Origin: Escherichia coli
GTDB lineage: Bacteria; Pseudomonadota; Gammaproteobacteria; Enterobacterales; Enterobacteriaceae
Reading direction: 5' to 3' (one strand)
DNA: 64,000 bases
NCBI RefSeq assembly: GCF_036507355.1
Contig: NZ_AP027877.1
The position numbers and the translations under genes were made by a program. Every line of letters begins with the position of its first letter. The first letter of the stretch is position 1. This document shows, piece after piece, positions 30,069 to 49,168 of the stretch. The notes under the pieces are model-generated. The model was not told where the DNA came from. It ran no database searches and saw only the letters and a list, made by a program, of their open reading frames with translations.

Positions 30069-30104
30069 TGTCCTGTTCCTGTTATCACATTATCTGCTGA
30101 ACAA

Positions 30105-31263: not shown

Positions 31264-31382
31264 ACTGCTTTCCTTTCAAAAAACTATTTCTAAATCGACA
31301 TGGGCAGTCGTTCCGTACACTTTGTTTTGTCAACGAGTTTGACTGCCAACACTGCACAGTTTCCCCCCAAAAGATGAAACAT

Positions 31383-31696: not shown

Positions 31697-31744
31697 ATTG
31701 TCTTGTATTTATTTGTTTTTTACCTTTACTATCAATAAGTTAAA

Positions 31745-33421: not shown

Positions 33422-34436
33422 CGTTTTTCCCTTATAATTACAGACGCGCACTAGCTGTGCTGGGTTAGCAATAATCCAACATTTTTATCCTGATTATGTT
33501 TATAAAAGCGAACGTTTGCTTAATAACTAACGTAAGTGGACCAGTTCTTCTGAGTGAACTTAAATGGAGTAGCAACAGTTAATTATAATAACGTTGCCAT
33601 ACAAACGCCATGCTCTTGCATGCTATGTACCTTTATATATTTATCAATCGGATACGAATCTAATAATAACCCTCATCATTAATGCAACTAATCTTATCTA
33701 TATATCATGTGATATGTTCTGTAACAAGTAAAATCAACATAAAAAATTCAGCAAAATTTAATATTCGTTCAACTAGCCGTCTCACATATGACATTATTAG
33801 TCAACTCCATTTGCCACAAAATGGCTATTTCATGGAGCGCAGTAATTTCTTAGTGGCTATTATCATGCTAATTCTTAGGTCCCTAGCGATTATTCCTGGC
33901 TGATTCGTCAGCTTACGCCATGAGATTGTTACATTCATTTTTATCCTGGAGATATGGGGGAACGCAGGAGATGATTTTTTCATCTACATTCGTTGGTAAA
34001 TATAGCTTTGGTCACTACGACTTAAACCTTCCTCAATCACAGCCATTCGCCGGGCGATACGGCAAACAAACTAAGTGAAACATCATCCTGAAAACACCAA
34101 CATCAACAAGCCTCTCCAGATCGACTTCAGAAGTGACCAGTTACAAGCCACAAACCAAGAAACATATTTCATGATGAGAATTATGCTCAGCCTGATGGCG
34201 GGTAAACACTGATTTTCACCAAGCTCACGGAGTTAGCTTGCAAAGCTTTCCTTGTTTAGACTATAAATAAATTATTTATAAAACAAATAGTTAAACGAAG
34301 ATCTTTAGTTTTTGAAGACCACCGCAAGTGTTCGTCTGGCTTCACATGGCATCTTCCTCTTAGAAAAATATCGACATATTTTGTGACACGAATTGCAAAT
34401 CTGGTTTTGTTGTATGGATTGCGTGATTTTTGTTCT

Positions 34437-34460
34437 GGTATAACAGGTATAAAGGTGCAC
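34437..34460. promoter_or_regulatory. Putative NanR operator (GGTATA repeats) in the fimB-nanC intergenic region
   Basis: GGTATAACAGGTATAAAGGT seen; resembles the NanR GGTATA-repeat operator as I recall it. Confidence 0.4.
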
Positions 34461-34875
34461 CAAGATAGTCAATGAGACAGGGCATCTTGCAATCTATGGC
34501 AAACATCACTTCAGTTCTTTCTCATCGGGTGATGAAAACGCACTTCAGTCTGAAAGGAATATGAAAATGAGATCAACAGACACTCTATTTTATGACTCCG
34601 GGTAAAATGGATTGAGTAAGTGATATAGCTTACGAACATTCAAATCAATTAAACATCAGAAGAGATTTTATACTCAGGTATTTAATCTGGATCTCTGTTT
34701 ATTTAAATAATGTGAAACGAGAATTTTCACAGGAGACCTTATACAAAAAATATAAAATACAGTTACCCGTTGCCAAAGACACTATAAGCCTGGCAAAAAA
34801 TATTACACAACATAAATGCTAATTGTTTATGCGGGCTTTGTATTGCTTTCTGTATCCTACAAATGAGTGAAATTT

Positions 34876-35592
34876 ATGAAAAAGGCTAAAATACTTTCTG
34901 GCGTATTATTACTGTGCTTTTCGTCCCCATTAATTTCTCAGGCTGCGACACTGGACGTACGTGGTGGATATCGTAGTGGAAGCCACGCCTATGAGACTCG
35001 ACTCAAAGTCAGTGAGGGATGGCAAAATGGATGGTGGGCAAGCATGGAAAGTAATACCTGGAATACCATTCATGATAATAAAAAGGAAAATGCCGCACTC
35101 AATGATGTTCAGGTTGAAGTTAATTACGCGATTAAACTTGATGATCAATGGACGGTGCGCCCGGGAATGTTAACGCATTTTAGCAGCAACGGCACACGCT
35201 ACGGACCCTACGTAAAACTGTCCTGGGACGCGACAAAAGATCTTAATTTTGGCATTCGCTATCGTTACGACTGGAAAGCTTACCGACAACAAGACTTATC
35301 TGGTGATATGTCTCGTGATAACGTTCATCGTTGGGATGGATATGTCACTTACCATATTAATAGTGATTTCACCTTCGCATGGCAAACGACGCTATACAGT
35401 AAACAGAACGATTATCGCTATGCAAACCATAAGAAATGGGCGACGGAAAATGCATTTGTTCTACAATACCATATGACGCCCGATATTACGCCATACATAG
35501 AATATGACTACCTTGACCGTCAGGGTGTTTACAACGGCAGAGATAATTTATCGGAAAACAGTTATCGCATTGGTGTGTCATTTAAACTGTAG
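34876..35592 (+). CDS. nanC: N-acetylneuraminic acid outer-membrane channel
   Basis: From MKKAKILSGVLLLCFSSPLISQAATLDVRGGY. Confidence 0.85.
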   Translation: MKKAKILSGVLLLCFSSPLISQAATLDVRGGYRSGSHAYETRLKVSEGWQNGWWASMESNTWNTIHDNKKENAALNDVQVEVNYAIKLDDQWTVRPGMLTHFSSNGTRYGPYVKLSWDATKDLNFGIRYRYDWKAYRQQDLSGDMSRDNVHRWDGYVTYHINSDFTFAWQTTLYSKQNDYRYANHKKWATENAFVLQYHMTPDITPYIEYDYLDRQGVYNGRDNLSENSYRIGVSFKL

Positions 35593-35611
35593 TAGACAGG
35601 AGACAGTCACA

Positions 35612-36718
35612 ATGAATAAAACAATAACGGCGCTTACTATCATAATGGCTTCATTTGCCGCAAACGCGTCTGTATTACCGGAAACTCCTGTGCCATTTAA
35701 AAGTGGTACCGGAGCAATTGATAACGACACTGTCTACATTGGTTTAGGTAGCGCAGGTACGGCATGGTACAAGCTGGATACACAGGCCAAAGATAAAAGA
35801 TGGACAGCGTTAGCTGCATTCCCTGGCGGACCGAGAGATCAAGCAACCTCTGCATTTATTGATGGCAATCTGTATGTGTTTGGCGGCATTGGCAAAAACA
35901 GCGAGGGCTTGACTCAGGTATTTAATGACGTACACAAATACAACCCCAAAACCAATAGCTGGGTTAAATTGATGTCGCACGCGCCGATGGGCATGGCGGG
36001 CCATGTGACTTTTGTACACAACGGCAAGGCTTATGTTACTGGCGGTGTTAACCAGAATATCTTCAATGGCTATTTTGAAGATCTCAACGAAGCTGGAAAA
36101 GATTCAACCGCTATAGATAAAATCAACGCCTACTATTTTGACAAAAAAGCAGAAGATTATTTCTTCAATAAGTTTCTGTTGTCTTTTGATCCCTCAACAC
36201 AGCAATGGAGTTACGCTGGCGAATCTCCCTGGTACGGAACGGCTGGTGCGGCGGTTGTGAATAAAGGTGATAAAACCTGGCTTATTAATGGCGAAGCCAA
36301 ACCAGGATTGCGAACGGATGCCGTATTTGAACTTGACTTCACCGGTGATAATTTAAAATGGAATAAGCTTGATCCCGTCTCATCACCAGATGGCGTCGCT
36401 GGCGGTTTTGCGGGGATAAGCAATGATTCTCTTATATTTGCTGGAGGGGCCGGATTCAAAGGTTCACGAGAAAATTACCAGAACGGTAAGAACTATGCGC
36501 ATGAAGGCCTGAAAAAATCATATAGCGCTGATATTCATCTTTGGTATAACGGGAAATGGGATAAATCGGGTGAATTATCGCAAGGTCGGGCCTACGGAGT
36601 ATCATTGCCCTGGAATAATAGTTTATTAATTATTGGCGGTGAAACTGCAGGCGGCAAAGCAGTGATGGATTCAGTTTTAATTTCTGTGAAGGATAATAAA
36701 GTCACAGTACAAAACTAA
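35612..36718 (+). CDS. nanM: N-acetylneuraminate mutarotase (Kelch-repeat propeller)
   Basis: From MNKTITALTIIMASFAANA (signal peptide); repeated GG motifs. Confidence 0.85.
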   Translation: MNKTITALTIIMASFAANASVLPETPVPFKSGTGAIDNDTVYIGLGSAGTAWYKLDTQAKDKRWTALAAFPGGPRDQATSAFIDGNLYVFGGIGKNSEGLTQVFNDVHKYNPKTNSWVKLMSHAPMGMAGHVTFVHNGKAYVTGGVNQNIFNGYFEDLNEAGKDSTAIDKINAYYFDKKAEDYFFNKFLLSFDPSTQQWSYAGESPWYGTAGAAVVNKGDKTWLINGEAKPGLRTDAVFELDFTGDNLKWNKLDPVSSPDGVAGGFAGISNDSLIFAGGAGFKGSRENYQNGKNYAHEGLKKSYSADIHLWYNGKWDKSGELSQGRAYGVSLPWNNSLLIIGGETAGGKAVMDSVLISVKDNKVTVQN

Positions 36719-36723
36719 CGCTT

Positions 36724-36747
36724 CAGGGCCCCGGTAAAGGGGCCCTG
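36724..36747 (+). terminator. Hairpin after nanM
   Basis: CAGGGCCCC-GGTAAA-GGGGCCCTG. Confidence 0.5.
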
Positions 36748-36782
36748 CTATCAATTTGTCATTTCAATTACGCGAAATTTAT

Positions 36783-37763
36783 ATGAACGCAATAATATCG
36801 CCTGATTATTACTATATTCTTACCGTTGCTGGTCAGTCTAATGCCATGGCGTATGGCGAAGGACTGCCATTACCGGACAGGGAAGATGCGCCTCATCCCA
36901 GAATTAAACAATTAGCGAGATTTGCGCATACGCATCCCGGAGGCCCGTCATGTCACTTTAACGACATTATTCCACTGACTCACTGCCCACACGATGTTCA
37001 GGATATGCAGGGTTATCACCATCCTCTGGCAACGAATCATCAAACACAGTACGGCACCGTTGGCCAGGCACTGCATATAGCACGGAAATTACTGCCCTTT
37101 ATTCCTGATAATGCAGGGGTTCTCATCGTTCCGTGTTGCCGTGGCGGATCGGCTTTTACCGCGGGCAGCGAAGGGACATATTCAGAACGGCACGGAGCCA
37201 GCCATGATGCTTGTCGTTGGGGAACGGATACTCCGCTATACCAGGATTTAGTCAGCAGAACGCGAGCCGCACTGGCAAAAAATCCGCATAACAAATTCCT
37301 CGGCGTATGCTGGATGCAAGGCGAATTTGACTTAATGACCAGTGACTACGCGTCACACCCTCAACACTTTAATCATATGGTTGAAGCCTTTCGTAGGGAT
37401 CTAAAACAATACCATTCTCAGCTTAATAATATTACTGACGCACCGTGGTTTTGCGGCGATACCACCTGGTACTGGAAAGAAAATTTCCCTCATGCGTATG
37501 AAGTTATTTATGGCAATTATCAAAATAATGTTTTAGCCAATATTATTTTCGTCGACTTCCAGCAACAAGGTGAAAGAGGACTGACGAACGCGCCTGATGA
37601 AGACCCGGACGATTTAAGCACGGGATATTACGGTTCAGCGTACCGGTCACCGGAGAACTGGACGACGGCACTGCGAAGCAGTCATTTCAGCACGGCAGCC
37701 CGTCGGGGGATTATTTCTGACAAGTTTGTAGAAGCAATTTTGCAGTTTTGGCGCGAAAGGTGA
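36783..37763 (+). CDS. nanS: 9-O-acetyl-N-acetylneuraminate esterase
   Basis: From MNAIISPDYYYILTVAGQSNAMAYG. Confidence 0.85.
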   Translation: MNAIISPDYYYILTVAGQSNAMAYGEGLPLPDREDAPHPRIKQLARFAHTHPGGPSCHFNDIIPLTHCPHDVQDMQGYHHPLATNHQTQYGTVGQALHIARKLLPFIPDNAGVLIVPCCRGGSAFTAGSEGTYSERHGASHDACRWGTDTPLYQDLVSRTRAALAKNPHNKFLGVCWMQGEFDLMTSDYASHPQHFNHMVEAFRRDLKQYHSQLNNITDAPWFCGDTTWYWKENFPHAYEVIYGNYQNNVLANIIFVDFQQQGERGLTNAPDEDPDDLSTGYYGSAYRSPENWTTALRSSHFSTAARRGIISDKFVEAILQFWRER

Positions 37764-37770
37764 GCGTTCA

Positions 37771-38025
37771 TTAATTTGATTTATTCGCATCCATCAGCGC
37801 TTTTAACTGCTCCGGCGTAAACGGTGGTTTGCGTCGGTGCAACATCGCATGGCAATTAGGGTACACAGGCAGCAAATCATTAACTGGATCCAGCTGGTAA
37901 TCCTCTTTAATGGCTGACAGCGGCACCAGGTGATGCACATGGATAAAGCCTTCAGCGATATCACCATAGATCTTCACCAGATCAACACCGCATATTCCGT
38001 ATGAACCATACGGAGATTTAACCAT
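37771..38025 (-). CDS. Short HNH-nuclease-motif protein (84 aa), possibly a truncated gene
   Basis: HVHHLVPLS...NCHAMLH motif; its start overlaps the divergent next gene on a CATG. Confidence 0.45.
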   Translation of the reverse strand: MVKSPYGSYGICGVDLVKIYGDIAEGFIHVHHLVPLSAIKEDYQLDPVNDLLPVYPNCHAMLHRRKPPFTPEQLKALMDANKSN

Positions 38026-38593
38026 GACCTACAAATACAACCCCTTCTGGCAGCAACGTATTCGTGAGACGGTGCGGCACGCACTGAATGTTCATCCCCG
38101 CCTGACGGCATTGCGGGTTGACCTGCGTCTCCCGGATGTACCGGCAGCAACGGACGCAGCTGTGATATCCCGCTTCATCAATGCCCTGAAAGCCCGAATC
38201 GACGCTTACCAGAAACGTAAGCATCGGGAAGGTAAACGCGTGCATCCCACAACCCTGCATTACGTCTGGGCCCGGGAGTTTGGGGAGTGCAAAGGTAAAA
38301 AACACTATCACCTGATGCTGCTGGTCAACCGGGATACCTGGTGTCGTGCCGGTGATTACCGCGCTCCGGAGTCTCTGGCCGGGATGATTAAACAGGCGTG
38401 GTGCAGTGCCCTGGGAGTGGATGTCGGGTGCCATGCCACGCTGGTGCATTTTCCGGCCTGGCCGGCGGTGTGGCTGGCGCGTAATGATGACACCGGCTTT
38501 CAGCAAGTGCTGGAACGTGCTGACTATCTGGCGAAGGAGTATACCAAAGCTCACTGCACCGGTGAGCGCAATTTTGGCTGTAGCCGGAGTTGA
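38024..38593 (+). CDS. YagK/YfjJ-family (inovirus Gp2-like) island protein
   Basis: 189-aa ORF MTYKYNPFWQQRIRETVRHALNVHPRLTALRVDLRLPD...; family assignment from memory only. Confidence 0.4.
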   Translation: MTYKYNPFWQQRIRETVRHALNVHPRLTALRVDLRLPDVPAATDAAVISRFINALKARIDAYQKRKHREGKRVHPTTLHYVWAREFGECKGKKHYHLMLLVNRDTWCRAGDYRAPESLAGMIKQAWCSALGVDVGCHATLVHFPAWPAVWLARNDDTGFQQVLERADYLAKEYTKAHCTGERNFGCSRS

Positions 38594-38852
38594 GCACGAC
38601 TGGCGCGCCAATATCCGGCAAACCAAAAGTATGGGTTGTTGTCTGGCGGCAACGATGTATCCACTCGCCCACTGACTGTTTTTTACGTCAGTGTTCCATT
38701 GTGTGACAACCACAGTGCTGTAACAGCAACCAGCCTGCTTTACCCAAACTCCAGTCCAGATTTTAACTGAACCGCCATTCACACCCTGACCACGCTGCCC
38801 GTACCGGGACGGCTGTTGCCTGCGTGTCGTCTGGCGGCTAAGGAATATGACT

Positions 38853-39254
38853 ATGTACGCAAAATCCTTTATCGCTCTTGATGGCAACGGACGTCTGACG
38901 GGCGCCCGTACTGCACAGGCCGCACCTTATGCTCACTACACCTGCCACTTGTGTGGCAGTGCACTCAGATACCATCCGCAATACGACACTGAACTTCCCT
39001 GGTTTGAACACACTGACGACAGGCTGACAGAGCACGGTCAACAGTGCCCTTATGTCAGGCCGGAGCGCAGAGAAATACAGTTGATTAAACGTCTGCAGCA
39101 ATTCGTACCGGATGCCTTACCCGTGGTGCGTAAAGCCAGCTGGCACTGCAGACAATGTCACCACGATTATTATGGGGAGCAGTACTGCACACACTGCCAG
39201 ACCGGAGGATTCAGTATTCCCCGGACAACTCAGGAGGAAATATGCGAATTCTGA
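38853..39254 (+). CDS. Cys-rich (double CxxC) hypothetical protein, paralogue A
   Basis: CHLCG...PWFEH...CRQCHHDYYGEQYCTHCQTG; RBS-like AAGGAA upstream of the ATG at 38853. Confidence 0.45.
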   Translation: MYAKSFIALDGNGRLTGARTAQAAPYAHYTCHLCGSALRYHPQYDTELPWFEHTDDRLTEHGQQCPYVRPERREIQLIKRLQQFVPDALPVVRKASWHCRQCHHDYYGEQYCTHCQTGGFSIPRTTQEEICEF

Positions 39255-39676
39255 ACTGTTATATGGCGAATGACAGCAAAGGCCATTTTGTTACGGCGAA
39301 AGAAGCTGCGAAGCACAACCGACAGGACGTTTTGTGCTGTGTGTCCTGTGGATGCCCGTTAACACTTCAGCGGGGCAATGACGGACAACCACCGTGGTTT
39401 GAACATGACCAGATGACTGTCGCTGAAAAAATCCTGCTGCGATGTACCTGGCTTGACCCGGCGGAGAAAGAGGCCCGTCGTTTGCATCTGCAGGGCATGA
39501 CGGTTCCGGATTATACGGTGAAGGTGAGAAAGTGGTTTTGTGTGATGTGTGACGAAGATTATGAGGGGGAAAAGTGCTGCCCACGCTGCGGTACCGGGGT
39601 ATACAGCAGGGCGTGGGGGCGGCAGGAGGTGCCGTCGGAAGATGCCAGGGCTGATAATCCGTTACAGAGGCTGTAA
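39242..39676 (+). CDS. Cys-rich (double CxxC) hypothetical protein, paralogue B
   Basis: CVSCGCP...PWFEH...CVMCDEDYEGEKCCPRCGTG; AGGAGG RBS inside the 3' end of paralogue A; 13-bp overlap. Confidence 0.45.
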   Translation: MRILNCYMANDSKGHFVTAKEAAKHNRQDVLCCVSCGCPLTLQRGNDGQPPWFEHDQMTVAEKILLRCTWLDPAEKEARRLHLQGMTVPDYTVKVRKWFCVMCDEDYEGEKCCPRCGTGVYSRAWGRQEVPSEDARADNPLQRL

Positions 39677-40030
39677 TGGTTGCCTCCGGAGCAGTTTGCG
39701 GTGATGCCTTTCCCGGGAATGGATTGCCAGTGCGGGGACTGTGGAGCTTAATTCCGGTGTTGGTGGCCTTTCCGTTGATTTTATGCCAACAGCCCCCTGT
39801 GACTGACAGGCTGCCTCGTCATTCCATTCGTATCTCCAGTAACAGGGGGTTGTATTGTATTTTATTGTGCCGGTTCAGGTGTGCGTTTCCCGGCGCGTCT
39901 GCACCGGCTTAACCAAATTCAACAGGGATAAAATAGTGGTAAGCGTACAGCCTGAACCGTCTGGTCAGAATCTGACGAATTAGACAAAGTGGTGTCCACC
40001 AAATAAGTAGTGGGAACCAAAGTGTCAGAT

Positions 40031-40411
40031 ATGCAGAAAAATGTGACTCCCGGCAGGCGAAAAGGCTGCCCTAATTATCCTCCCGAATTTAAACAGCTGC
40101 TCGTTGCTGCCTCCTGTGAACCCGGGATATCCATCTCAAAACTTGCTCTTGAAAATGGCATTAACGCCAATCTGTTGTTCAAATGGCGACAACAATGGCG
40201 CGAGGGAAAGCTGCTATTACCTTCTTCAGAGAGCCCCCAGCTACTTCCTGTGACTCTCGATGCAGCTGCCGAACAGCCAGAATCGCTCGCAGAGGACCCG
40301 GAAACCCTCAGTATCAGCTGTGAGGTAACGTTCCGGCACGGGACGCTCCGCTTCAATGGCAATGTCAGCGAAAAGCTCCTGACTCTGCTGATACAGGAAC
40401 TGAAGCGATGA
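40031..40411 (+). CDS. IS66 accessory protein (orfA)
   Basis: MQKNVTPGRRKGCPNYPPEFKQLLVAASCEPGISISKLALENGINANLLFKWRQQW (helix-turn-helix-like). Confidence 0.7.
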   Translation: MQKNVTPGRRKGCPNYPPEFKQLLVAASCEPGISISKLALENGINANLLFKWRQQWREGKLLLPSSESPQLLPVTLDAAAEQPESLAEDPETLSISCEVTFRHGTLRFNGNVSEKLLTLLIQELKR

Positions 40412-40755
40412 TCCCGTTACCTTCCGGGACCAAAATTTGGCTGGTTGCCGGTATCACCGATATGAGAAATGGCTTCAACGGCCTGGCTGCGAAAGTACAA
40501 ACGGCGCTGAAAGACGATCCCATGTCCGGCCATGTTTTCATTTTCCGGGGCCGCAGCGGCAGTCAGGTTAAACTGCTGTGGTCCACCGGTGACGGACTGT
40601 GCCTCCTGACCAAACGGCTGGAGCGTGGGCGCTTCGCCTGGCCGTCAGCCCGTGATGGCAAAGTGTTCCTTACGCAGGCGCAGCTGGCGATGCTGCTGGA
40701 AGGTATCGACTGGCGACAGCCCAAGCGGCTGCTGACCTCCCTGACCATGCTGTAA
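40408..40755 (+). CDS. IS66 TnpB-like protein (orfB)
   Basis: MIPLPSGTKIWLVAGITDMRNGFNGLAAKVQ...; ATGA overlap with orfA. Confidence 0.75.
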   Translation: MIPLPSGTKIWLVAGITDMRNGFNGLAAKVQTALKDDPMSGHVFIFRGRSGSQVKLLWSTGDGLCLLTKRLERGRFAWPSARDGKVFLTQAQLAMLLEGIDWRQPKRLLTSLTML

Positions 40756-40804
40756 ATCTCTTTATCCTGGTTGTCACAGAATAAGCCCGGTAAAATACGG
40801 GCTT

Positions 40805-42190
40805 ATGAACGACATCTCTTCTGACGACATCTTCCTGCTAAAACAGCGCCTGGCCGAACAGGAAGCGCTGATCCACGCCCTGCAGGAAAAGCTGAGCAAC
40901 CGGGAGCGCGAAATAGACCATCTGCAGGCGCAGCTGGATAAACTCCGCCGGATGAACTTCGGCAGTCGTTCCGAAAAAGTCTCCCGCCGTATCGCACAAA
41001 TGGAAGCCGATCTGAACCGGCTTCAGAAAGAGAGCGATACGCTGACTGGTAGGGTGTATGACCCGGCAGTACAGCGTCCGTTGCGTCAGACCCGCACCCG
41101 TAAGCCGTTCCCTGAATCACTACCCCGTGACGAAAAGCGACTGTTGCCTGCGGCGCCGTGCTGCCCGAACTGCGGCGGTTCACTGAGCTATCTGGGCGAG
41201 GATACCGCCGAACAGCTGGAGTTGATGCGTAGCGCCTTCCGGGTTATCCGGACGGTACGGGAAAAACATGCCTGTACTCAGTGCGATGCCATCGTGCAGG
41301 CACCTGCACCTTCGCGGCCCATCGAGCGGGGTATCGCCGGACCGGGGCTGCTGGCCCGCGTGCTGACCTCGAAGTATGCAGAGCACACCCCGCTGTATTG
41401 CCAGTCAGAAATATACGGCCGGCAAGGTGTGGAGCTGAGCCGTTCACTGCTGTCGGGCTGGGTGGATGCATGCTGCCGGCTGCTGTCTCCGCTGGAAGAG
41501 GCGCTTCATGGCTATGTCATGACTGACGGCAAACTCCATGCCGATGATACCCCGGTCCAGGTACTGCTGCCGGGTAATAAGAAGACGAAGACCGGGCGGT
41601 TGTGGGCGTATGTTCGTGATGACCGCAATGCCGGGTCAGCGTTGGCACCTGCAGTGTGGTTCGCTTACAGCCCGGACAGAAAAGGCATCCATCCGCAGAC
41701 TCATCTTGCTTGCTTCAGCGGTGTGCTGCAAGCGGATGCGTACGCCGGGTTCAACGAGCTGTATCGCAATGGTGGGATAACGGAAGCTGCCTGCTGGGCT
41801 CATGCCCGCCGAAAGATCCACGATGTGCACGTCCGCATCCCGTCAGCACTGACGGAAGAAGCCCTAGAGCAGATCGGTCAGTTGTACGCCATAGAGGCGG
41901 ATATAAGGGGAATGCCGGCAGAGCAGCGGCTTGCTGAACGTCAGCGAAAAACGAAACCGCTGTTGAAATCCCTGGAAAGCTGGTTGCGTGAAAAGATGAA
42001 GACCCTGTTCTTCGGCTCTGGCCATGGTGGTGAGCGGGGAGCGCTACTGTACAGCCTGATCGGGACGTGCAAACTGAATGACGTGGATCCAGAAAGCTAC
42101 CTTCGCCATGTGCCTGGCGTCATAGCAGACTGGCCGGTCAACCGGGTCAGCGAACTGCTTCCGTGGCGCATAGCACTGCCAGCTGAATAA
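40805..42190 (+). CDS. IS66-family transposase (orfC)
   Basis: 461-aa ORF with an N-terminal coiled coil and a CxxC...CxxC zinc-ribbon region. Confidence 0.75.
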   Translation: MNDISSDDIFLLKQRLAEQEALIHALQEKLSNREREIDHLQAQLDKLRRMNFGSRSEKVSRRIAQMEADLNRLQKESDTLTGRVYDPAVQRPLRQTRTRKPFPESLPRDEKRLLPAAPCCPNCGGSLSYLGEDTAEQLELMRSAFRVIRTVREKHACTQCDAIVQAPAPSRPIERGIAGPGLLARVLTSKYAEHTPLYCQSEIYGRQGVELSRSLLSGWVDACCRLLSPLEEALHGYVMTDGKLHADDTPVQVLLPGNKKTKTGRLWAYVRDDRNAGSALAPAVWFAYSPDRKGIHPQTHLACFSGVLQADAYAGFNELYRNGGITEAACWAHARRKIHDVHVRIPSALTEEALEQIGQLYAIEADIRGMPAEQRLAERQRKTKPLLKSLESWLREKMKTLFFGSGHGGERGALLYSLIGTCKLNDVDPESYLRHVPGVIADWPVNRVSELLPWRIALPAE

Positions 42191-42428
42191 CACATCCCCG
42201 TCAATACGGCCCTCGCTGTACGCTTACTTTTGTTCGGACTGCTTATGGCCTTTTTCCACTGGTGTAGCAGGAAAGTTAACCGGCTGCCACCATGAGATGA
42301 CGTGTAAACCGTGCAGGCATGTTTTCACGTGGTGACGCTTTCATTGGGGGTCTACGCCGGAACCCCAATATTGTTCACATACATGAATTTGAAAAACTAA
42401 GCGATACTGCTGTCCGTACCTTATAAAC

Positions 42429-43787
42429 TTATTTCAACGCTTCCGGCAGCGTCACAATCCACAGTTCACTGTCAGACTCCGGTTTCTCCAGTGGCTTCAC
42501 TCTGAGGGTCGTTTCAACCTGCTTGTCGTCAAGCGTCAGCTTTCCTTCCGCGTTCACCCGATAATCCTTGAATGTCTTGCCCTCGACCGGATGTTGCATC
42601 GCCACCTTCACGCCAAAGTCGTTATCGTTCGCCACCGCCAGCGTTTTGCTGTCGATCAGCGCCAACCCTTCAGCCTTCTCCTGCTGCCAGCCCAAGGAGC
42701 GCAGATCAACAACCTGCGTTTTCTGCGCAAGGGTAATGCCGCGCTGTGACAGGGTTTTCTCATCATCAAACTCCGGATACTCACCCGGCTTGTCGAAGCC
42801 TGACAGGTCGCTCGCCTTATTGAGATCGACCTCGTAAATCAGGTTACGCATTCTGTTGTTTTTATCTCTTCCCTGTTCGATCAGCAGGATGTGCTGGTTA
42901 TCGAGCGCCACGATGTCTCCGATTTTAGCGTCGCTGTTTTTGCTGTAGGCCGCGCTGTCGATAGGATAACCGTACATCGCGGTTTTTCCGCTTGCCGGAT
43001 CGAAGCTCACCAGACGCGTAAACAGCGCCTTTTTCTTGCTCTTAGCGTCGATATCCAGCGTACTTTGCACGGCGACAATAATACGCCCGTCCGGCATACG
43101 GGTGAGGCCTTCAAAGCCGCGGTTCGCCTGACGCCATTTGAGGATATTTGGCAAACCGCCCGCAATCGCTTTTTCCCCTTCCGCCGCCTGCGGACCGTGG
43201 ATTGCCAGGATTTTCCCTTTACTGTCGATGTTAATCAGGAACGGGCCATACTCATCGCACAGCCAGTAACCTCCTTTACCATCCGGAGTGATCCCTTCCG
43301 TATCCAGCCCGCGATTATCCCCCTTCAGTCTATGTAACGTGTCGCTGAAGGCCACTTCATTGGTGGAGCCAATCACGTCGCTTGCCAGCGGCAGACCGTT
43401 GATCGCGCCTTTATCGTCATGCAGAGGACGGGGATCGATGGCCTCCGCTTTGCCGTTTTGTACACGAATCGTCATCAGCAGCGGCGCGAAATCTGGCGTA
43501 ACGAAAATTTTAGTTTCGTTTTTCCCCTCTTTCGGTGAATCCGCGTTCGGACCGCGATCGGTAATGGTTGCGAATGTCAGGGCATCGCCCTGTTTACCGG
43601 TGAACAGCAGGCCAGAACCTATCCCAACCGGAAGGCCGTTCGGGAATGCACTGGCAAATGCGCCGGCGTAGTTCACGTGCGTGCCTTCTGGAAAACTGAC
43701 GACATAGCGCTCAGCCGTAGGTTGTGCCGCCAGGGCAGAGAAAGAGAGCGTACAACCGATTAGCACGGGAATAATTTTTCTTTTCAT
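42429..43787 (-). CDS. Secreted beta-propeller protein, phytase-like esterase family (tentative)
   Basis: Signal peptide MKRKIIPVLIGCTLSFSALAA; repeated blades with TEGI / FEGL / AEGL and DEYGP motifs. Confidence 0.45.
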   Translation of the reverse strand: MKRKIIPVLIGCTLSFSALAAQPTAERYVVSFPEGTHVNYAGAFASAFPNGLPVGIGSGLLFTGKQGDALTFATITDRGPNADSPKEGKNETKIFVTPDFAPLLMTIRVQNGKAEAIDPRPLHDDKGAINGLPLASDVIGSTNEVAFSDTLHRLKGDNRGLDTEGITPDGKGGYWLCDEYGPFLINIDSKGKILAIHGPQAAEGEKAIAGGLPNILKWRQANRGFEGLTRMPDGRIIVAVQSTLDIDAKSKKKALFTRLVSFDPASGKTAMYGYPIDSAAYSKNSDAKIGDIVALDNQHILLIEQGRDKNNRMRNLIYEVDLNKASDLSGFDKPGEYPEFDDEKTLSQRGITLAQKTQVVDLRSLGWQQEKAEGLALIDSKTLAVANDNDFGVKVAMQHPVEGKTFKDYRVNAEGKLTLDDKQVETTLRVKPLEKPESDSELWIVTLPEALK

Positions 43788-44071
43788 ATTGTTAGCATCC
43801 ATAAAGTGAAGATCACACTACACCATAAAGAAGAAACGAGTCAGGAAAATGACATCGAATGGCAACATGCGCGGGCCTGAGGCCAAAGAAATGTAAAACA
43901 CTGTTGTTATTTGTAACAACGGAAACATTTACGGAAATTATTTGTCTTTCTTCGTGATCAAAAATGCTGTGTCTTGTTGGATTGGAGTGATGAGGGCTGC
44001 GTTTAGGAAACGCCCTATATTGTACGGTTGCATTATCGCGGTAGGGGTAATGCACGTGTCAGTATGATGAG

Positions 44072-44200
44072 CTGACCACACTCACGTGGGTGGACTGGTA
44101 TAACAATCGACGATTGCTGGAAAGGCAGGGCCATATCCCACCGGCAGAAGCAGAAAAAGCTTATTATGCTTCCATCGGAAACGATGATCTGGCAGCCTGA
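44072..44200 (+). pseudogene. C-terminal remnant of a DDE (rve-type, IS3-like) transposase
   Basis: Translates to ...WVDWYNNRRLLERQGHIPPAEAEKAYYAS...*, a typical transposase C-terminus; no upstream body. Confidence 0.4.
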
Positions 44201-44298
44201 GTTCACAGATAAAACACTCTCCAGGAAACCCGGGGCGGTTCACTTAGCCGCGTGTCCATTATTGCTGGATAAGATCATAACGAGGTAATGACTCCAAC

Positions 44299-44802
44299 TT
44301 ATTGATAGTGTTTTATGTTCAGATAATGCCCGATGACTTTGTCATGCAGCTCCACCGATTTTGAGAACGACAGCGACTTCCGTCCCAGCCGTGCCAGGTG
44401 CTGCCTCAGATTCAGGTTATGCCGCTCAATTCGCTGCGTATATCGCTTGCTGATTACGTGCAGCTTTCCCTTCAGGCGGGATTCATACAGCGGCCAGCCA
44501 TCCGTCATCCATATCACCACGTCAAAGGGTGACAGCAGGCTCATAAGACGCCCCAGCGTCGCCATCGTGCGTTCACCGAATACGTGCGCAACAACCGTCT
44601 TCCGGAGCCTGTCATACGCGTAAAACAGCCAGCGCTGGCGCGATTTAGCCCCGACATAGCCCCACTGTTCGTCCATTTCCGCGCAGACGATGACGTCACT
44701 GCCCGGCTGTATGCGCGAGGTTACCGACTGCGGCCTGAGTTTTTTAAGTGACGTAAAATCGTGTTGAGGCCAACGCCCATAATGCGGGCTGTTGCCCGGC
44801 AT
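44299..44802 (-). CDS. insB: IS1 InsB (transposase frame)
   Basis: 167-aa ORF ...[42 protein letters not shown]... Confidence 0.85.
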
Positions 44803-44996
44803 CCAACGCCATTCATGGCCATATCAATGATTTTCTGGTGCGTACCGGGTTGAGAAGCGGTGTAAGTGAACTGCAGTTGCCATGTTTTACGACAGTGAGA
44901 GCAGAGATAGCGCTGATGTCCGGCGGTGCTTTTGCCGTTACGCACCACCCCGTCAGTAGCTGAACAGGAGGGACAGCTGATAGAAACAGAAGCCAC
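44721..44996 (-). CDS. insA: IS1 InsA
   Basis: 91-aa [46 protein letters not shown]... Confidence 0.9.
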
Positions 44997-45065
44997 TGGA
45001 GCACCTCAAAAACACCATCATACACTAAATCAGTAAGTTGGCAGCATCACCGGCCTCGCATTTAA

Positions 45066-45911
45066 TTATTCATTTAAAGATTCAAGAAATGTCCAGCCTT
45101 TATGAGTAACATAATACATTTGTCCTTTTGCCCCTCTTTCAATCACAAAATCAAAGGATAACAGTTCGTTAAGTGCGCCCTCCCAACGGGCTACCTCTCT
45201 AGCCGAACTTCCACCAAAGGATTGATTTCCCGCTTGAATATCCGTGCCACCTAAATGCCTTATCACATAAATTGTTCCGCTATCATCGACACATGCCAAT
45301 TTCAGCAAACTGAGTGCATCGGCGGACAAATTACTTTCTGGCAAAGATTGACTTGTATTCGCATCAGGAGAATTGTTAATGGTAGATATAAGAGAAGACA
45401 AATAAGGGCTACTAGAAATAATTATCGAAAGTTGCCTACGGACTTTGTCTTTGAAATCAGATAAGTCATTAAAAGACTCTATCAATCCCTTTTGCATGCA
45501 CTCAATTTTGAACAATTTAAGAGACTCATATTGTTCTCTATCAAGGCTTTCAGGGGCAACAGGCTTTGAGGAAAAGTAAATCATTGCCGGTTTTCCCGCA
45601 TTCAAATGACGGTGAATTTCTTCGACTGTTCCGCTGGCCTCGTTCCCAGTCGGTGAGCCTAGACGAGTCCAAAACACACCGATTAATAAATCACAATCTA
45701 CTAATAATCTTTGATTAATCAACTCCTGAGGCCTAACTCCTAATTCGGGTGATGTATGAGTTTCCCATCCAATTGGTGTCAACATTACTTTTGAACGAGC
45801 TGAATTTATATCATTCCACTCATGGATCATTTCACGAATGACTTGTCTCTCTTCAGCGACATCACCAGGAGAAGCAATCATTACAGGGATAACAGTTGCT
45901 GTGTAAGCCAT
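45066..45911 (-). CDS. Hypothetical protein with DUF4062-like N-terminal domain and an uncharacterised C-terminal domain
   Basis: N-terminus VMIASPGDVAEERQVIREMIHEW ... DCDLLIGVFWTRLGSP ... SGTVEEIHRHLNAGKPAMIYF resembles the DUF4062 pattern as I recall it; GGAGAG RBS 6 nt upstream; visibly AT-rich. Confidence 0.45.
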   Translation of the reverse strand: MAYTATVIPVMIASPGDVAEERQVIREMIHEWNDINSARSKVMLTPIGWETHTSPELGVRPQELINQRLLVDCDLLIGVFWTRLGSPTGNEASGTVEEIHRHLNAGKPAMIYFSSKPVAPESLDREQYESLKLFKIECMQKGLIESFNDLSDFKDKVRRQLSIIISSSPYLSSLISTINNSPDANTSQSLPESNLSADALSLLKLACVDDSGTIYVIRHLGGTDIQAGNQSFGGSSAREVARWEGALNELLSFDFVIERGAKGQMYYVTHKGWTFLESLNE

Positions 45912-45924
45912 AAACTCTCCATAT

Positions 45925-46485
45925 TCAATCGGTAATAGCTGCTACAGTCGCTCTTGAAACGCCATATTGACGCGCTAACGCACTGATACTCAAACCGCTA
46001 TTCTTTTTCTCTAAAATCTCTCTACGGGCTTCTGACGCGATTTTAGGAGGTCTGCCCAATTTCTTACCTTCGGCTTTTGCTCGTGATAGTCCCGCCTGAG
46101 TGCGCTCAATCAGCAGATCACGCTCCATCTCCGCAACCGCGGCGAGCATAGATAATAGCAACTTCCCAGCGGCAGAAGTGAGATCTGTGTTACCAAGCTG
46201 GTGGACAAGAACCTTGATATTACGGTCAGCCAGCGCCCTTACCGTTTGCAGGACGTCAATCGCATCACGCCCCAGACGATCAAGCTTCGCTACCACCAAC
46301 GTTTCACCATCGCGGATTTTATTGAGCATTTCAGAAAATGCTTTACGTTGCATTGCCGGAACCTTCCCGCTAACAACATCGGCAAACCAGTAATCAATTT
46401 GCCACCCAGCCTGCCCAAGCTCCAGCCGTTGGTTCTCAGTATCCTGCTGCGATGTCGAAACACGTCCGTAGCCAAAAGTTGCCAT
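45925..46485 (-). CDS. Small serine recombinase (resolvase/invertase family), about 186 aa
   Basis: From MATFGYGRVSTSQQDTENQ (catalytic Ser region) with a C-terminal helix-turn-helix (LSISALARQYGVSRATV); GGGGAG RBS upstream of the ATG at 46485. The track ORF carries a 23-codon extension. Confidence 0.8.
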   Translation of the reverse strand: MATFGYGRVSTSQQDTENQRLELGQAGWQIDYWFADVVSGKVPAMQRKAFSEMLNKIRDGETLVVAKLDRLGRDAIDVLQTVRALADRNIKVLVHQLGNTDLTSAAGKLLLSMLAAVAEMERDLLIERTQAGLSRAKAEGKKLGRPPKIASEARREILEKKNSGLSISALARQYGVSRATVAAITD

Positions 46486-46507
46486 TGTTATCTCCCCATC
46501 TGACCCC

Positions 46508-46605
46508 TGCCAGAAAACGAGGCCAACATTAGGATGGCCTGCCAGAAAAGCCAAGGCTATTTTTCCAACAGTGTGAAAGCGTGCGATTGGGAGGTGCCAG
46601 AAAAC
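46508..46605. promoter_or_regulatory. Three direct copies of TGCCAGAAAA(C/G) upstream of the recombinase gene, plus a short GGCCA...TGGCC palindrome; candidate recombinase binding or regulatory site
   Basis: Copies read at 46508, 46540 and 46595; the GGCCAACATTAGGATGGCC palindrome lies between the first two. Confidence 0.35.
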
Positions 46606-47460
46606 GGTCGATTGATGACACCATCAAACACTAACAGTGTGCCCCGGCAACGCGCGCCTGCAACGGTTGTCTCGGATGAGCAAAATCTTAGGGTTTTCTC
46701 AGCGACCCCTGACGCGCGGGCACGCACATGCTCACGGGGGCGCGGGCGAGCTATACAGTTGAGGGAGGGGCAACCATAAGCGTGCAATTTTTCAAGCCGG
46801 GGATTCAGCTATAGGCTAACGGTAGAATGCGGCTTGTAGAGGGTTGTGCGCACATACCCAGTACAATCGCATTACTCCACGCGCACAAACCCCGGAGAGC
46901 CGCTTGCGGTGGGGGTTTAAGAGGTACAATTTTTGGTTCGGGTCATAAAGGACTTTTGAGAGCTGACTTAGCTTATTTAAACTGCATTCGTCTTGGCTAT
47001 GGAGACACGAGGCAGCTCAAGTTTTGTTCAAAACTTTGCAATATTTTGGTTCGATCTCATGTTCTCGTGCTAAAGAAATCAGCACTCGATCAAATTTTCA
47101 TTTTTTTTCTGAAACATTGACATACAGCCTAAGCCTTAAGGCACGTAGGGTTGGTCGAAATTTCCCTTTGACAACCTCAATTTAACCTCAAAATCAACCC
47201 TTGTACTGCAAAGAATCCTAACTAGAATGCTGAACATGTAGGGGGGAATCTTATTAACACACCCTATATGTTGTGCTCATGTATAAATGATGGGCATAAA
47301 AAAACCGGAGTCACCTGCGTGAATCCGGTCTATGAAGCATGACCGCCATGAGTCTGCAAACTCATAACGATTGTTAGCCTCACTATCGTTTCTAACGGCT
47401 CGATTGTGCCCGGCTTGGTTGGTTATGTAAACAGTAAGATAAAATCAAAAGGAACGATCC

Positions 47461-48375
47461 ATGCTTATTCAGAAAAAGCGTATTCGAAATATTGATAATT
47501 ACATACCTAACTTTGATGGCCGTGATATCTACATTGCACATTCTTTGCCAGATGCGGGGAAAACGGACTCTATTGGTTTCTCAAGTCAAAGAGCTTTAGG
47601 TGAAGAAGTCCTCCCCAAGATTTTAGGGCCAATAACCAGATTCAATGCTAATGGCAAATCAGTACCTGACAAAACAGCACCTAAAGAAACTGCATACAGA
47701 CAAATTTCATGGACTAGAAAGCAATGGATCGGAGGGGGCGCAACTCAAGAAGTTACTGACACTCGTGAAATTGAGTATAAGCGCTACAAGAGAATCCTCA
47801 CCCCTCCACCAAGCATAGAGTTAAAGATTGTAGAGAATCTTCAAGGGGAGAAGTTGATCATCTCTCCAAAGCTAAGTTTGACAGCTAACAACAAAGAGTT
47901 AGTGGCTCACTGCATTAATCTTTTTTTAGAGCTTTTTGGGTTGTGCGAAACTGTTGACGACCAACTTAATACCATCGTTAAAAGTAAATCTATAAAACTA
48001 AACTGGAGCCTCCTGCCTCAGGGTCAACAGCCTTGGAGTACTATCGGTTCAAAAATCCTTTCAGCTATTAAGATCAGGGGAAAGGGCAATACCGCTGTTG
48101 TTGAAGGCAGACTTGAACTTATCAATAGTAAAAAACCAGATTTCGTAGCGGTTGGGCAAGCTGGGTTCCAAGGCTACGTGATATTTGGGTTCACAGGCCA
48201 AAACATTTACGTGCTAGAAAGCTCACAATGTAATAACGCAACTTATATACTTAACAATAATTGGCAGCAGTTATCCCAGCTAACTAAAGCCGAAATACTA
48301 GACGGAAACTTGCACCATGCCCGTGTCATCCACCGTGTAAACTGGGCAGCAGAAATACTTAAATACTTACCATAA
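47461..48375 (+). CDS. Hypothetical protein (304 aa), no domain recognised
   Basis: ATG preceded by an AAGGAA RBS at about 8-nt spacing; visibly AT-rich; no homologue recognised by eye. Confidence 0.5.
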   Translation: MLIQKKRIRNIDNYIPNFDGRDIYIAHSLPDAGKTDSIGFSSQRALGEEVLPKILGPITRFNANGKSVPDKTAPKETAYRQISWTRKQWIGGGATQEVTDTREIEYKRYKRILTPPPSIELKIVENLQGEKLIISPKLSLTANNKELVAHCINLFLELFGLCETVDDQLNTIVKSKSIKLNWSLLPQGQQPWSTIGSKILSAIKIRGKGNTAVVEGRLELINSKKPDFVAVGQAGFQGYVIFGFTGQNIYVLESSQCNNATYILNNNWQQLSQLTKAEILDGNLHHARVIHRVNWAAEILKYLP

Positions 48376-48888
48376 AGCGCCGGACGCGCGGGAATGAACC
48401 CCCGCGCACTTTCAAACATACCGCAATAGAATCCATAAAGCCCCGTTGGTGGTAAGACAACAAGCGGAGCCTCTGGCGACTACATCACAGTTATGTCAGT
48501 TAGTGAGGCTTATCAGGATGACCATGTACCCAAGGGGAGCGAGGCCGAACCGCTGGCAGAGCTTGCATATGGTCTGCAAGTACCGTGACCACCATAAACC
48601 TGTTTATCCCCTGCGGCGTCTCGCGACAGCGGCAGAACGGGGGCATCGGGCTAAAATGCGCTTCACTAAAAGTTTTTGGGATTGTTTAGAGACAGTGGCT
48701 ACGTCATAGCTTTCAAGTTGAGTCAGTACGTGTTTGACGCTTGGAACTACACGCCGCTATGAGTTAACATCCCAATTACCACTATCAACCACAGCGGCTT
48801 TTTCAAGGGACATAACAGAGCATTTCTTACAGGCAAAAGAGACAGATTTTATTGTCTAACTACCTGTATTGTAAGGAATTTAGTGACT

Positions 48889-48973
48889 TGGTGCCGAAGG
48901 CCGGACTCGAACCGGCACGTATTTCTACGGTTGATTTTGAATCAACTGCGTCTACCGATTTCGCCACTTCGGC
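48889..48973 (-). tRNA. leuX: tRNA-Leu (leuX type, CAA anticodon)
   Basis: Reverse complement reads GCCGAAGTGGCGAAATCGGTAGACGCAGTTGATTCAAAATCAACCGTAGAAATACGTGCCGGTTCGAGTCCGGCCTTCGGCACCA, a cloverleaf with a long variable arm and CCA end. Confidence 0.9.
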
Positions 48974-49168
48974 ACTGAAGAGGTATGCGGAAAACGTTGT
49001 GGATTATACCTGTCGCACGCCACCATGCAAGCGCCAGCTTGCTCGCACCTCGCTAAGTGCTGAAATTTTCAGCATTGCATACAGCGATGTGTAACCTTTG
49101 TCACACTCCAGGCACCCCGCCCTGCCATGCTCTACACTTCCCAGACAACACCAGAGAAGGACCAAAAA

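Follow-up and report, generated by a model that had tools for sequence, protein, structure and literature searches.

Tandem accretion of integrative elements leaves integrase-less, att-flanked remnants, the 'CIME' type known from streptococcal ICEs. In Escherichia coli K-12, the KpLE2 phage-like element (the intB island) is inserted at the 3′ end of leuX and has nanS as its other flank. It is heavily IS-ridden and carries an intB pseudogene adjoining leuX and, among others, the fec, sgc and yjh genes; a search of 46 kb there detected no distal leuX repeat. Relatives at the same site retain such repeats. ATCC 25922-type genomes carry an att-flanked element in which int636, a 636-aa DUF6538-type tyrosine recombinase, adjoins leuX; the order in ATCC 25922 and DJH_183 is leuX, int636, NIPSNAP, DUF1643', recombinase, DUF4062, membrane protein, HTH, leuX', an RNA-like motif described below, and AbiJ. 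ST648-type genomes have a 5.6-kb segment that runs from leuX to an exact 25-nt copy of the leuX 3′ end and lies ahead of a truncated K-12-type intB. The order there (ST648/GTEN_23) is leuX, motif, 304-aa gene, recombinase, DUF4062, membrane protein, HTH, 25-nt repeat (12240-12264 of that locus, L003) and an intB remnant matching IntB residues 1-124 at 100% identity. This state is like that of the 'CIME' type, with an integrase-less segment between two att copies before an older truncated integrase. leuX also anchors hotspot #37 among the E. coli defence islands (Hochhauser et al. 2023, PMC10121019; review, PMC12707154), a locus of hypervariable content with recombinase genes but without other mobility genes, where a recognisable mobile element is often absent.

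We analysed 64 kb of E. coli contig NZ_AP027877.1 (assembly GCF_036507355.1; hereafter the window) containing the same insertion point. On either side, the core genes run collinear with those of K-12. nanS ends at 37763, and K-12 homology breaks off at 37766 next to nanS and at 48888 next to leuX. The segment that differs from K-12 (37767-48887) confirms to within 3 nt the boundaries given by an earlier sequence-only reading, 37764-48888. From nanS to leuX the interval spans 11.1 kb, against 40.1 kb in K-12, where that reading had rightly placed a much larger integrase-bearing element. GC content across the interval ranges from 0.40 to 0.62, and the single item shared with the K-12 island is an IS1 (90% identity). 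Content was assigned by Pfam, NCBIfam and PGAP annotation carried over from near-identical DNA, and it matches the earlier gene list:

37771..37994, minus: HNH endonuclease gene fragment, C-terminal ~74 codons (Pfam HNH E 0.0021, under the curated threshold)
37993..37994: deletion junction, 4,943 bp absent relative to strain 14EC007 (L005 16232-21174)
38024..38593, plus: YagK/YfjJ-family ('inovirus Gp2 family') gene (Pfam YagK_YfjJ_C E 9.7e-48; PGAP)
38847-39254 and 39242-39676, plus: two overlapping paralogous Cys-rich genes, each with DUF7828 (E 2.5e-31 / 1.5e-30) and Zn_ribbon_11 (E 8.6e-09 / 2.3e-18); PGAP coordinates transferred from L001
39939..42227, plus: IS66-family element, with tnpA 40010-40411, tnpB 40408-40755 and tnpC 40805-42190 (NCBIfam transpos_IS66 E 1.1e-105; IS66 TnpA E 6.6e-27)
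42429..43787, minus: secreted phytase-like protein, 'esterase-like activity of phytase' (Pfam Phytase-like E 4.6e-43; PGAP WP_000823243.1 on identical DNA)
44069..44277, plus: IS3-family remnant, last transposase codons and terminal inverted repeat, ending ...GGATAAGATCA at 44277 ('IS3 family transposase, partial' by PGAP at this position in L001)
44284..45051, minus: IS1, 768 bp, with 23-nt terminal repeats and insA/insB on the minus strand
45066..45911, minus: 281-aa protein with an N-terminal DUF4062 domain (Pfam E 7.8e-05, just under the curated cutoff)
45925..46485, minus: small serine recombinase of resolvase/invertase type, 186 aa (Pfam Resolvase E 1.3e-36, HTH_7 E 1.2e-05)
46486..46617: region upstream of the recombinase gene, with three direct copies of TGCCAGAAAA (46508, 46540, 46597)
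46618..47460: non-coding junction stretch, no Pfam signal in six frames
47461..48375, plus: 304-aa protein, no Pfam domain
48421..48684, minus: conserved structured RNA-like motif, paired core 48439-48652, same sense as leuX
48685..48888, minus: 204-nt spacer separating the motif from the tRNA 3′ end
48889-48973, minus: leuX, tRNA-Leu(CAA), intact, 3′ end facing the interval

Like the K-12 island, this islet is rich in insertion sequences and has no detectable distal leuX repeat; unlike it, the islet has no integrase. With IntB of K-12 and the 636-aa integrase found at leuX in other strains as queries, tblastn gave no tyrosine integrase match in the interval, and the sole weak matches in the window lie outside it (~15.6 kb, and in the fim region, 31.8-33.0 kb). 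Scanning every unassigned stretch in six frames against Pfam, a method of low sensitivity for short fragments, found nothing, and where other genomes have homologous DNA, its PGAP annotation includes no integrase pseudogene; fragments under ~40 codons could escape the integrase search. The att core, the last 25 nt of leuX (48889-48913), is duplicated in relatives and single here: the search for a direct repeat proposed by the sequence-only reading returned one copy in the 64-kb window, and relaxing it to 3-6 mismatches or to shorter pieces added none. Its statement that no integrase adjoins the tRNA is thus borne out, and neither of the findings it named as contrary, an integrase gene or att repeats inside the interval, turned up. 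The absence is real but not exceptional. A missing integrase at leuX is not unusual, because the same integrase-less 466-bp flank directly adjoins leuX in 621 of 5426 complete E. coli genomes and no mobile element is detectable in 68% of the cases in which hotspot #37 is occupied (PMC10121019); leuX is accompanied by an intB-like gene in 2071 genomes.

Other E. coli share the left 6.3 kb (37993-44283) at 99.5-99.95% identity, as a block that in many of them runs via IS remnants into fecIRABCDE and then onward to leuX. Its close relatives are strains whose nanS-proximal end is of the McrBC, HNH or phosphorothioate-dependent REase version. Against strain HUM3355, identity is 99.95% over 37993-44277 and homology stops exactly at 44277. 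The HNH fragment, called 'HNH endonuclease' by PGAP on homologous DNA and matching a PADLOC type IV REase profile (E 0.0018), has an open reading frame that extends to an accidental ATG at 38025. Strain 14EC007 has the full-length gene (216 aa), and homology to its locus (L005) stops at 37994: L005 1-16231 aligns with window 21760-37994, and 21175-27447 with 37993-44283. On this alignment the 37993/4 junction is a clean 4.9-kb deletion relative to 14EC007, removing the HNH N-terminus, a phosphorothioate-dependent REase fragment, DUF4942/DUF957/DUF5983 remnants and an IS3. The IS66-family element ends in 22-nt imperfect terminal inverted repeats and shows no target-site duplication, the 8-mers on its two sides being different (AAATAGTG / TTTTGTTC).

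The islet consists of two unrelated halves that meet at IS1 (44284-45051). This IS1 shares 99.1% identity with the IS1A copy in HUM3355 and is flanked by the 9-mers TCATAACGA and GGCCTCGCA, hence without target-site duplication. Beyond it lies the right 3.8 kb (45052-48888), which matches the tRNA-proximal part of the ST648-type 5.6-kb segment at 99.8-99.9% identity and is intact beside leuX in 84 genomes. The 5.6-kb segment is in turn a fusion of two modules. One (45052-46617: DUF4062 gene, recombinase and upstream region) is part of the widespread att-flanked leuX element in which int636 normally adjoins the tRNA; 45054-46617 is 99.6% identical to the ATCC 25922 element and homology to that element in ATCC 25922 and DJH_183 stops at 46617/46618. 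The 58 bp just before this breakpoint (46560-46617) match several hundred E. coli genomes, and most of the 753 genomes matching 46560-48400 match just these 58 bp. The following 140 bp (46618-46757) match neither parent module. The other module (46758-48888: 304-aa gene and RNA-like motif) is separate and 98% identical in Enterobacter; DNA of Enterobacter chuandaensis spanning leuX, motif and 304-aa gene is 98.2% identical to window 46758-49060.

No complete known defence system is called by PADLOC in the interval, whereas hotspot #37 is a defence locus; the only defence-like matches are the HNH fragment and a domain-level one, residues 8-167 of the DUF4062 protein against the N-terminus of the candidate defence protein PDC-S60 (E 1.7e-26). 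The 304-aa protein belongs to no family in Pfam, PADLOC or NCBIfam searches and no solved structural relative was found. It had been labelled an orphan, wrongly: it has >720 homologues (42-88% identity) in Enterobacterales, Thermotogota, cyanobacteria and archaea, and the Methanobacterium homologue adjoins SIR2_2, HATPase_c_3 and integrase genes. Judged by the domain match to a candidate system and by gene neighbourhood, the remaining DUF4062 protein, 304-aa protein and HNH fragment are most likely defence-type cargo typical of hotspot #37. What had been called unusual cargo rather fits the defence-hotspot character of the locus.

The 240 nt nearest leuX form an unannotated, structurally conserved RNA-like element common to many tRNA-anchored islands. 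Its covariation is strong: RNAalifold places 34 pairs in nine helices within ~240 nt, including long-range helices with compensatory changes; in pair counts 97.8% are paired, versus 86.8% in shuffles and 32-50% when slid, and compensatory cells number 110 versus 37. The window holds one copy (nhmmer E 2.5e-68). In >12 enterobacterial genera a copy begins 187-317 nt beyond a gene for tRNA-Leu, Gly, Thr or Ala, and plasmids carry the motif too. The intervening spacer is not conserved in sequence between island types but is conserved in length (187-317 nt in 32 loci, mostly 204-248). Motif and tRNA together form a conserved anchor, and the gene directly beyond varies among strains and genera. In its multi-helix fold, size and fixed position the motif is like known structured RNAs associated with mobile elements; it differs from the families of Rfam 15, none of which matches it at E<=0.1, or six further copies at E<=1. 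There was no match among 50,697 phage records.

Very probably the interval is a composite, now immobile, that arose as tRNA-targeted elements inserted one after another at the leuX 3′ end and that later deletions stripped of integrases and att repeats. These deletions would have been IS-associated and of other kinds, and would have removed every integrase gene and distal att repeat. The earlier view of a decayed or remodelled island is supported and can be reconstructed from the att repeats, truncated intB and int636 element of relatives. A KpLE2-like island with intB would have occupied leuX, further elements would later have integrated at the regenerated leuX, and an internal deletion may then have fused two of them and taken out their integrases. 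Finally, IS1 would have inserted beside the DUF4062 gene, and an IS1-mediated adjacent deletion or IS1-IS1 recombination would have removed the membrane-protein gene, HTH gene, attR repeat, intB remnant and all else up to the IS3 remnant. The membrane-protein gene, HTH gene and 25-nt attR, kept in both ST648- and ATCC 25922-type elements, are indeed absent after the IS1-abutted module, as is the intB remnant of relatives; the ATCC 25922 element also keeps the 636-aa integrase that the window is without. No immediate precursor genome, with IS1 at 45052 and both flanks intact, was found, and a few relatives, rather than a phylogeny, underlie the proposed order of events. The same end state would result if imported DNA had replaced the region by homologous recombination. 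Here the window differs from 'CIME'-type elements: the att-flanked state is gone and mobilisation in trans is therefore no longer possible, and the islet would no longer be able to excise.

It is unlikely that the region is instead non-mobile and variable, with conserved flanks (ahr-leuX-motif and, opposite, nanS/fim) between which homologous recombination exchanges the content, and with the integrase-less condition as its normal working state and not a product of decay. The anchor of motif and tRNA with varied cargo behind it would suit such exchange, as would the 621 genomes with the integrase-less flank, the 68% of occupied cases without a mobile element (PMC10121019) and the leuX, motif and 304-aa gene block shared with Enterobacter. 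However, relatives have genuine att repeats and truncated integrases at leuX, so site-specific integration built the locus, and the lack of target duplications at the IS1, IS66 and IS3 junctions points to rearrangement. Such exchange is compatible with the composite as a later mode of turnover, but is no substitute for it.

Very unlikely is a functional mobile element in the right module, integrated at leuX by the small serine recombinase rather than a tyrosine integrase, with the motif as part of a recombination or regulatory apparatus. A homologous recombinase is the motif's commonest protein-coding neighbour (8 of 33 loci within ~3 kb, in either orientation), adjoins it on an IncX5 plasmid and in a Pantoea leuX island, and the 46617 breakpoint lies 132 bp upstream of the recombinase gene beside the three TGCCAGAAAA repeats. 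Yet the recombinase is missing from many motif-bearing loci, a tyrosine integrase adjoins one repeat in the relatives with att repeats, the window has no second att copy, and no inverted repeats bound an invertible segment. The protein (WP_000190110.1 in other genomes, start taken from PGAP) is of resolvase/invertase type; at 186 aa, without the large C-terminal domains, it was rejected as a large serine integrase, and all NCBIfam equivalogs score far under their cutoffs against it.

An assembly artefact joining two loci through a collapsed IS1 copy is extremely improbable: although the whole arrangement occurs in 0 of 5426 complete E. coli genomes (the best covers 65%) and the join sits at an IS1 with a second copy at 4898-5667, leuX-nanS island material lies on both sides of it in the expected order and orientation, the core genes beyond are collinear with K-12, the two IS1 copies are different variants (90% and 98.7% identical to K-12 IS1F), and like IS1 junctions at the DUF4062 gene exist in independent finished genomes. 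Two other genomes carry independent IS1 insertions <= ~45 bp from the same spot, and one of them, ET745, has a deletion that extends to fimE.

Alignment of the K-12 leuX-fimB region to the window showed that K-12 homology stops at 37766 on the nanS side (nanS itself ends at 37763) and at 48888 on the leuX side, within 3 nt of the island coordinates proposed in the sequence-only reading. Both flanks, ahr-leuX and nanS, are collinear with K-12, and the only sequence that the intervening islet shares with K-12 is an IS1, at 90% identity. ARAGORN calls a single tRNA in the window, tRNA-Leu(CAA), on the minus strand; its 3′ end therefore faces the islet, and the islet abuts it directly, the tRNA 3′-end insertion of P4-like or intB-type islands. 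GC content across the interval ranges from 0.40 to 0.62. Searches with Pfam, NCBIfam and PADLOC, together with PGAP gene calls on near-identical DNA from other genomes, bore out every gene listed in the sequence-only reading, and its statement that K-12 carries a larger, integrase-bearing element is correct: the K-12 island is 40.1 kb long, with an intB pseudogene first. The features needed below are as follows.

37993-44283: left half of the islet
39939-42227: IS66-family element
44284-45051: IS1 between the two halves
45052-48888: right half of the islet
47461-48375 (+): gene for a 304-aa protein
48421-48684 (-): RNA-like motif of about 240 nt
48889-48973 (-): leuX, tRNA-Leu(CAA)

The absence of a tyrosine integrase, claimed from inspection of the islet, stands. 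In tblastn searches the interval contained no match to K-12 IntB or to the 636-aa integrase of the leuX element of strains ATCC 25922 and DJH_183; weak matches were confined to other parts of the window, around 15.6 kb and within the fim region (31.8-33.0 kb). A six-frame Pfam scan of the unassigned stretches, insensitive to short fragments, found no match either; the same scan missed the IS3 remnant and the HNH fragment, the latter scoring E 0.0021 if scanned alone yet absent from the six-frame output, so that this negative weighs little alone. A search of the 64 kb for the att core, the 25-nt leuX 3′ end, detected no second copy, whether 3-6 mismatches were tolerated or 16-20-mers were used, and the observation thus holds by both refuting conditions named in the sequence-only reading. 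The repeat was found in relatives (loci L002, L003 and L006). Neither an integrase beside the tRNA nor a distal attR, both features of P4-like or intB-type islands, is present in the window.

leuX anchors hotspot #37, which is described as being occupied more often than any other E. coli defence island (PMC12707154), and 68% of occupied cases of this hotspot have no detectable mobile genetic element, though integrase or recombinase genes are often present (PMC10121019). The islet fits this description: its variable content lies between conserved core genes, with leuX as the anchor. Among 5426 complete genomes, leuX is followed by an intB-like gene in 2071, and the integrase-less flank of the window, 466 bp directly beside leuX, occurs in 621. 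Since integrase-less flanks are common and the locus has the character of hotspot #37, the islet represents an ordinary state of a locus already known to be hypervariable, even if this particular arrangement is unique; in island structure it adds one more example to a familiar kind. The initial interpretation as a decayed or remodelled island is thus supported, and it is sharpened by tracing the pieces to the DNA of relatives; its description as unusual is dropped, given how frequent such flanks are and that the cargo, most likely of defence type, suits the hotspot.

The whole arrangement is found in none of the 5426 genomes (best coverage 65%), and each half is common separately. On the left, strain HUM3355 matches 37993-44277 at 99.95% identity, and strains 14EC007 and YJ3 match 37993-44283 at 99.5%; in these three strains the block runs on via IS remnants and ykiE into fecIRABCDE. 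Relative to 14EC007, 4,943 bp are missing from the window, and the HNH fragment is joined directly to the YagK-family gene at junction 37993/4. The IS66-family element carries tnpA-tnpB-tnpC (NCBIfam) and 22-nt terminal inverted repeats at 39939 and 42227, without an 8-bp target-site duplication (flanks AAATAGTG and TTTTGTTC).

The IS1 at the junction of the halves is a 768-bp element with intact 23-nt terminal inverted repeats and insA/insB. It lacks a 9-bp target-site duplication, and its flanking 9-mers, TCATAACGA and GGCCTCGCA, are unrelated, which indicates a deletion or IS1-IS1 recombination and not a non-IS1 identity. Its left flank is the end of the IS3-family remnant (terminal repeat ending at 44277), and its right flank is intergenic DNA shortly past the end of the DUF4062 gene. 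Independent IS1 insertions lie within ~45 bp of the same spot in two further finished genomes; one is a simple insertion, and the other, in ET745, is linked to deletion of everything up to fimE. AT-rich sequence at the 3′ side of the DUF4062 gene has thus received independent IS1 insertions in three genomes, at these positions.

Window, 45052-45100
Comparison locus L006, 12295-13110
Comparison locus L007, 12331-13100

Candidate precursor genomes, with IS1 at the same position and intact flanks, were rejected: their matches, extending to query position 7288, had been assembled from IS1 copies elsewhere joined into one match. The islet IS1 shares 90% identity with IS1F but 99.1% with the IS1A copy of HUM3355; a second IS1 in the window (4898-5667) is a different variant, 98.7% identical to K-12 IS1F.

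The right half is 99.8-99.9% identical to leuX-abutting DNA in 84 genomes. In ST648 and GTEN_23 this DNA continues into a membrane-protein gene, a Cro/C1-type HTH gene and an exact copy of the 25-nt leuX 3′ end, and codons 1-124 of a K-12-type IntB, at 100% identity, start 261 bp past the repeat. This state is the classic signature of an element that inserted later, at a regenerated att site, ahead of an older intB island. ATCC 25922 and DJH_183 carry an element with leuX on one side and leuX′ on the other. Its distal part is made up of the recombinase, DUF4062, membrane-protein and HTH genes; its tRNA-proximal part holds the gene for the 636-aa tyrosine integrase (DUF6538 + Phage_integrase), NIPSNAP and a DUF1643 gene with a frameshift. 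Homology of this element to the window stops at 46617, 132 bp upstream of the recombinase gene, and in most of the 753 genomes matching 46560-48400 only 58 bp before this breakpoint match. Beyond leuX′ in the same two strains come the 466 bp that adjoin leuX in the window and then an AbiJ gene; in E. coli C only the 466 bp lie between leuX and AbiJ.

The simplest history that we infer from these comparisons would start with two elements in tandem, accumulated at the regenerated leuX att site; a deletion would then have taken out the integrases and fused what was left into the right half. Insertion of IS1, then an adjacent deletion or IS1-IS1 recombination, would have removed the membrane-protein and HTH genes, attR and the intB remnant, along with whatever lay between the DUF4062-side point and the IS3 remnant. 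The islet may thus be taken as a worked example of a tRNA-anchored island losing mobility, and accretion, fusing deletion and IS1-associated attR loss would together account for the many leuX “defence islands” that show no mobility genes. This history refines the known picture and is no surprise.

Within the islet, PADLOC reports only PDC-S60, a candidate system of that database whose N-terminal domain the DUF4062 protein matches (E 1.7e-26), and a weak type IV restriction endonuclease match on the HNH fragment. The serine recombinase (186-209 aa) has Resolvase and HTH_7 domains only and is of the resolvase/invertase type; it has neither the size (>400 aa) nor the recombinase plus zinc-ribbon C-terminal domains of a large serine integrase, and XisF and Ccr models hit only its catalytic domain, far below cutoffs. 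An invertible promoter switch between the recombinase gene and the 304-aa gene, driven by the recombinase itself, was considered and rejected, no convincing inverted repeats flanking the segment. A short way upstream of the recombinase gene, TGCCAGAAAA occurs three times in direct orientation (46508, 46540 and 46597, in the stretch 46506-46606); the copies end ~10 bp before the 46617 breakpoint and could be a res-like or regulatory site. A non-coding junction stretch of ~160 bp (46755-46917), containing a 23-nt imperfect inverted repeat, recurs at 92-95% identity at unrelated chromosomal sites in other E. coli and may be a small repeat element.

The gene nearest leuX, on the opposite strand from it, encodes the 304-aa protein and had been labelled an orphan. 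That label no longer applies: more than 720 full-length homologues (42-88% identity) range from Enterobacterales to Kosmotoga, cyanobacteria and Methanobacterium, with no relative in Pfam, NCBIfam, PADLOC or PDB. In Methanobacterium the homologue adjoins SIR2_2, HATPase_c_3 and integrase genes, a defence-like neighbourhood, which suggests that the 304-aa gene may be an uncharacterised defence gene. A 2.3-kb module spanning leuX, the spacer, the motif and this gene (46758-49060) is 98.2% identical to Enterobacter chuandaensis (locus L039, 6124-8424), versus 78.6% for another flanking stretch (window 61581-63159); this difference indicates a probable recent transfer of the module between genera.

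The motif between this gene and leuX merits more follow-up than the islet itself, and its importance could be greater. About 16% of complete E. coli genomes carry it, E. coli C among them, and so does ATCC 25922. Homologues of the 466 bp (73-81%) occupy the same position by glyU in strains D3, NT1F34, TW10573 and EC24 and by thrW in 2016C-3878, with unrelated cargo behind them in each case, and one homologue lies on a plasmid. A pattern scan of one genome per species yielded 25 motif loci in Pantoea, Serratia, Kluyvera, Enterobacter, Kosakonia, Buttiauxella, Cedecea, Klebsiella, Raoultella, Citrobacter and others; in total, tRNA-linked copies span more than 12 enterobacterial genera, and copies at 60-80% identity lie on 63 plasmids of enterobacteria. 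At 32 of 46 loci the motif begins 187-317 nt (mostly 204-248) past the 3′ end of a tRNA gene for Leu(CAA), Gly(CCC), Thr(CGU) or Ala(GGC) that is read in the same direction, and most exceptions are plasmid copies, copies after a partial tRNA repeat or loci with too little upstream sequence. It is usually followed, at 68-90 nt, by the start of a co-oriented, highly variable gene encoding AbiJ, HNH, DUF4145 or unknown proteins; the commonest further neighbour is a small serine recombinase. In the glyU island of E. coli D3 (locus L013, 17226-30652), 13.3 kb lie between 22-nt tRNA-Gly repeats, with the motif at the tRNA end and, at the far end beside the repeat, a tyrosine integrase that shares the DUF6538 + Phage_integrase architecture of the 636-aa integrase of ATCC 25922.

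An alignment of 28 distinct copies supports a nine-helix consensus with long-range helices. Consensus pairs are formed in 97.8% of cells, compared with 86.8% in shuffles and 32-50% when partners were slid, and 13 of 34 pairs show double compensatory changes. Compensatory cells number 110 versus 37 expected from shuffles, a count reached by 0 of 500 shuffles, with fewer independent events than these cell counts suggest because the copies fall into few clades. The window copy by itself is no more stable than shuffled sequence (z = +0.62 for the motif strand, +0.07 for the other). One-nucleotide indels and the compensatory changes mark the motif as non-coding. Three column pairs (168-273, 180-205 and 250-262) are predominantly G.U, so that the structure can form only on the tRNA-sense strand; this strand specificity would favour an RNA role over a DNA-level one.

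A hok/sok-type toxin locus, prompted by a plasmid copy just downstream of relBE, was dismissed, as the sequence contains no Hok-like ORF. A role in single-stranded DNA may be an alternative: the motif may resemble a cos site, an oriT nick region, given that it contains ATCCTG, or a single-stranded DNA priming signal, while the G.U pairs weigh towards RNA. The likeliest roles would be those of a leader or processed RNA heading the cargo slot, possibly through read-through from the tRNA promoter; only weak promoter-like sites occur just after leuX, and no terminator is called between leuX and the motif. Neither Rfam 15 nor the phage database contains a match to the motif, and no described RNA at its position was found in the literature, which is weak negative evidence.

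We tentatively propose, as a reading that is plausible but somewhat short of probable, that the motif is a previously undescribed structured RNA at the tRNA-proximal, integrase-distal end of leuX, glyU, thrW and Ala-tRNA islands across Enterobacterales and plasmids. With transcription coming from the tRNA side, such a cis-acting leader or processed RNA would control or insulate the cargo slot and form the conserved “anchor” of defence islands without recognisable mobility genes. How islands of this kind are organised, and how they are exchanged when no mobile-element genes are detectable, is a question raised by Hochhauser et al. 2023 (PMC10121019), on which a functional RNA at the island boundary would offer a handle. 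In three comparison loci (L038, 2039-2130; L055, 7496-7557; L061, 2981-3041), a partial second copy of the motif (E about 1e-12) lies 1-2 kb from the full one.
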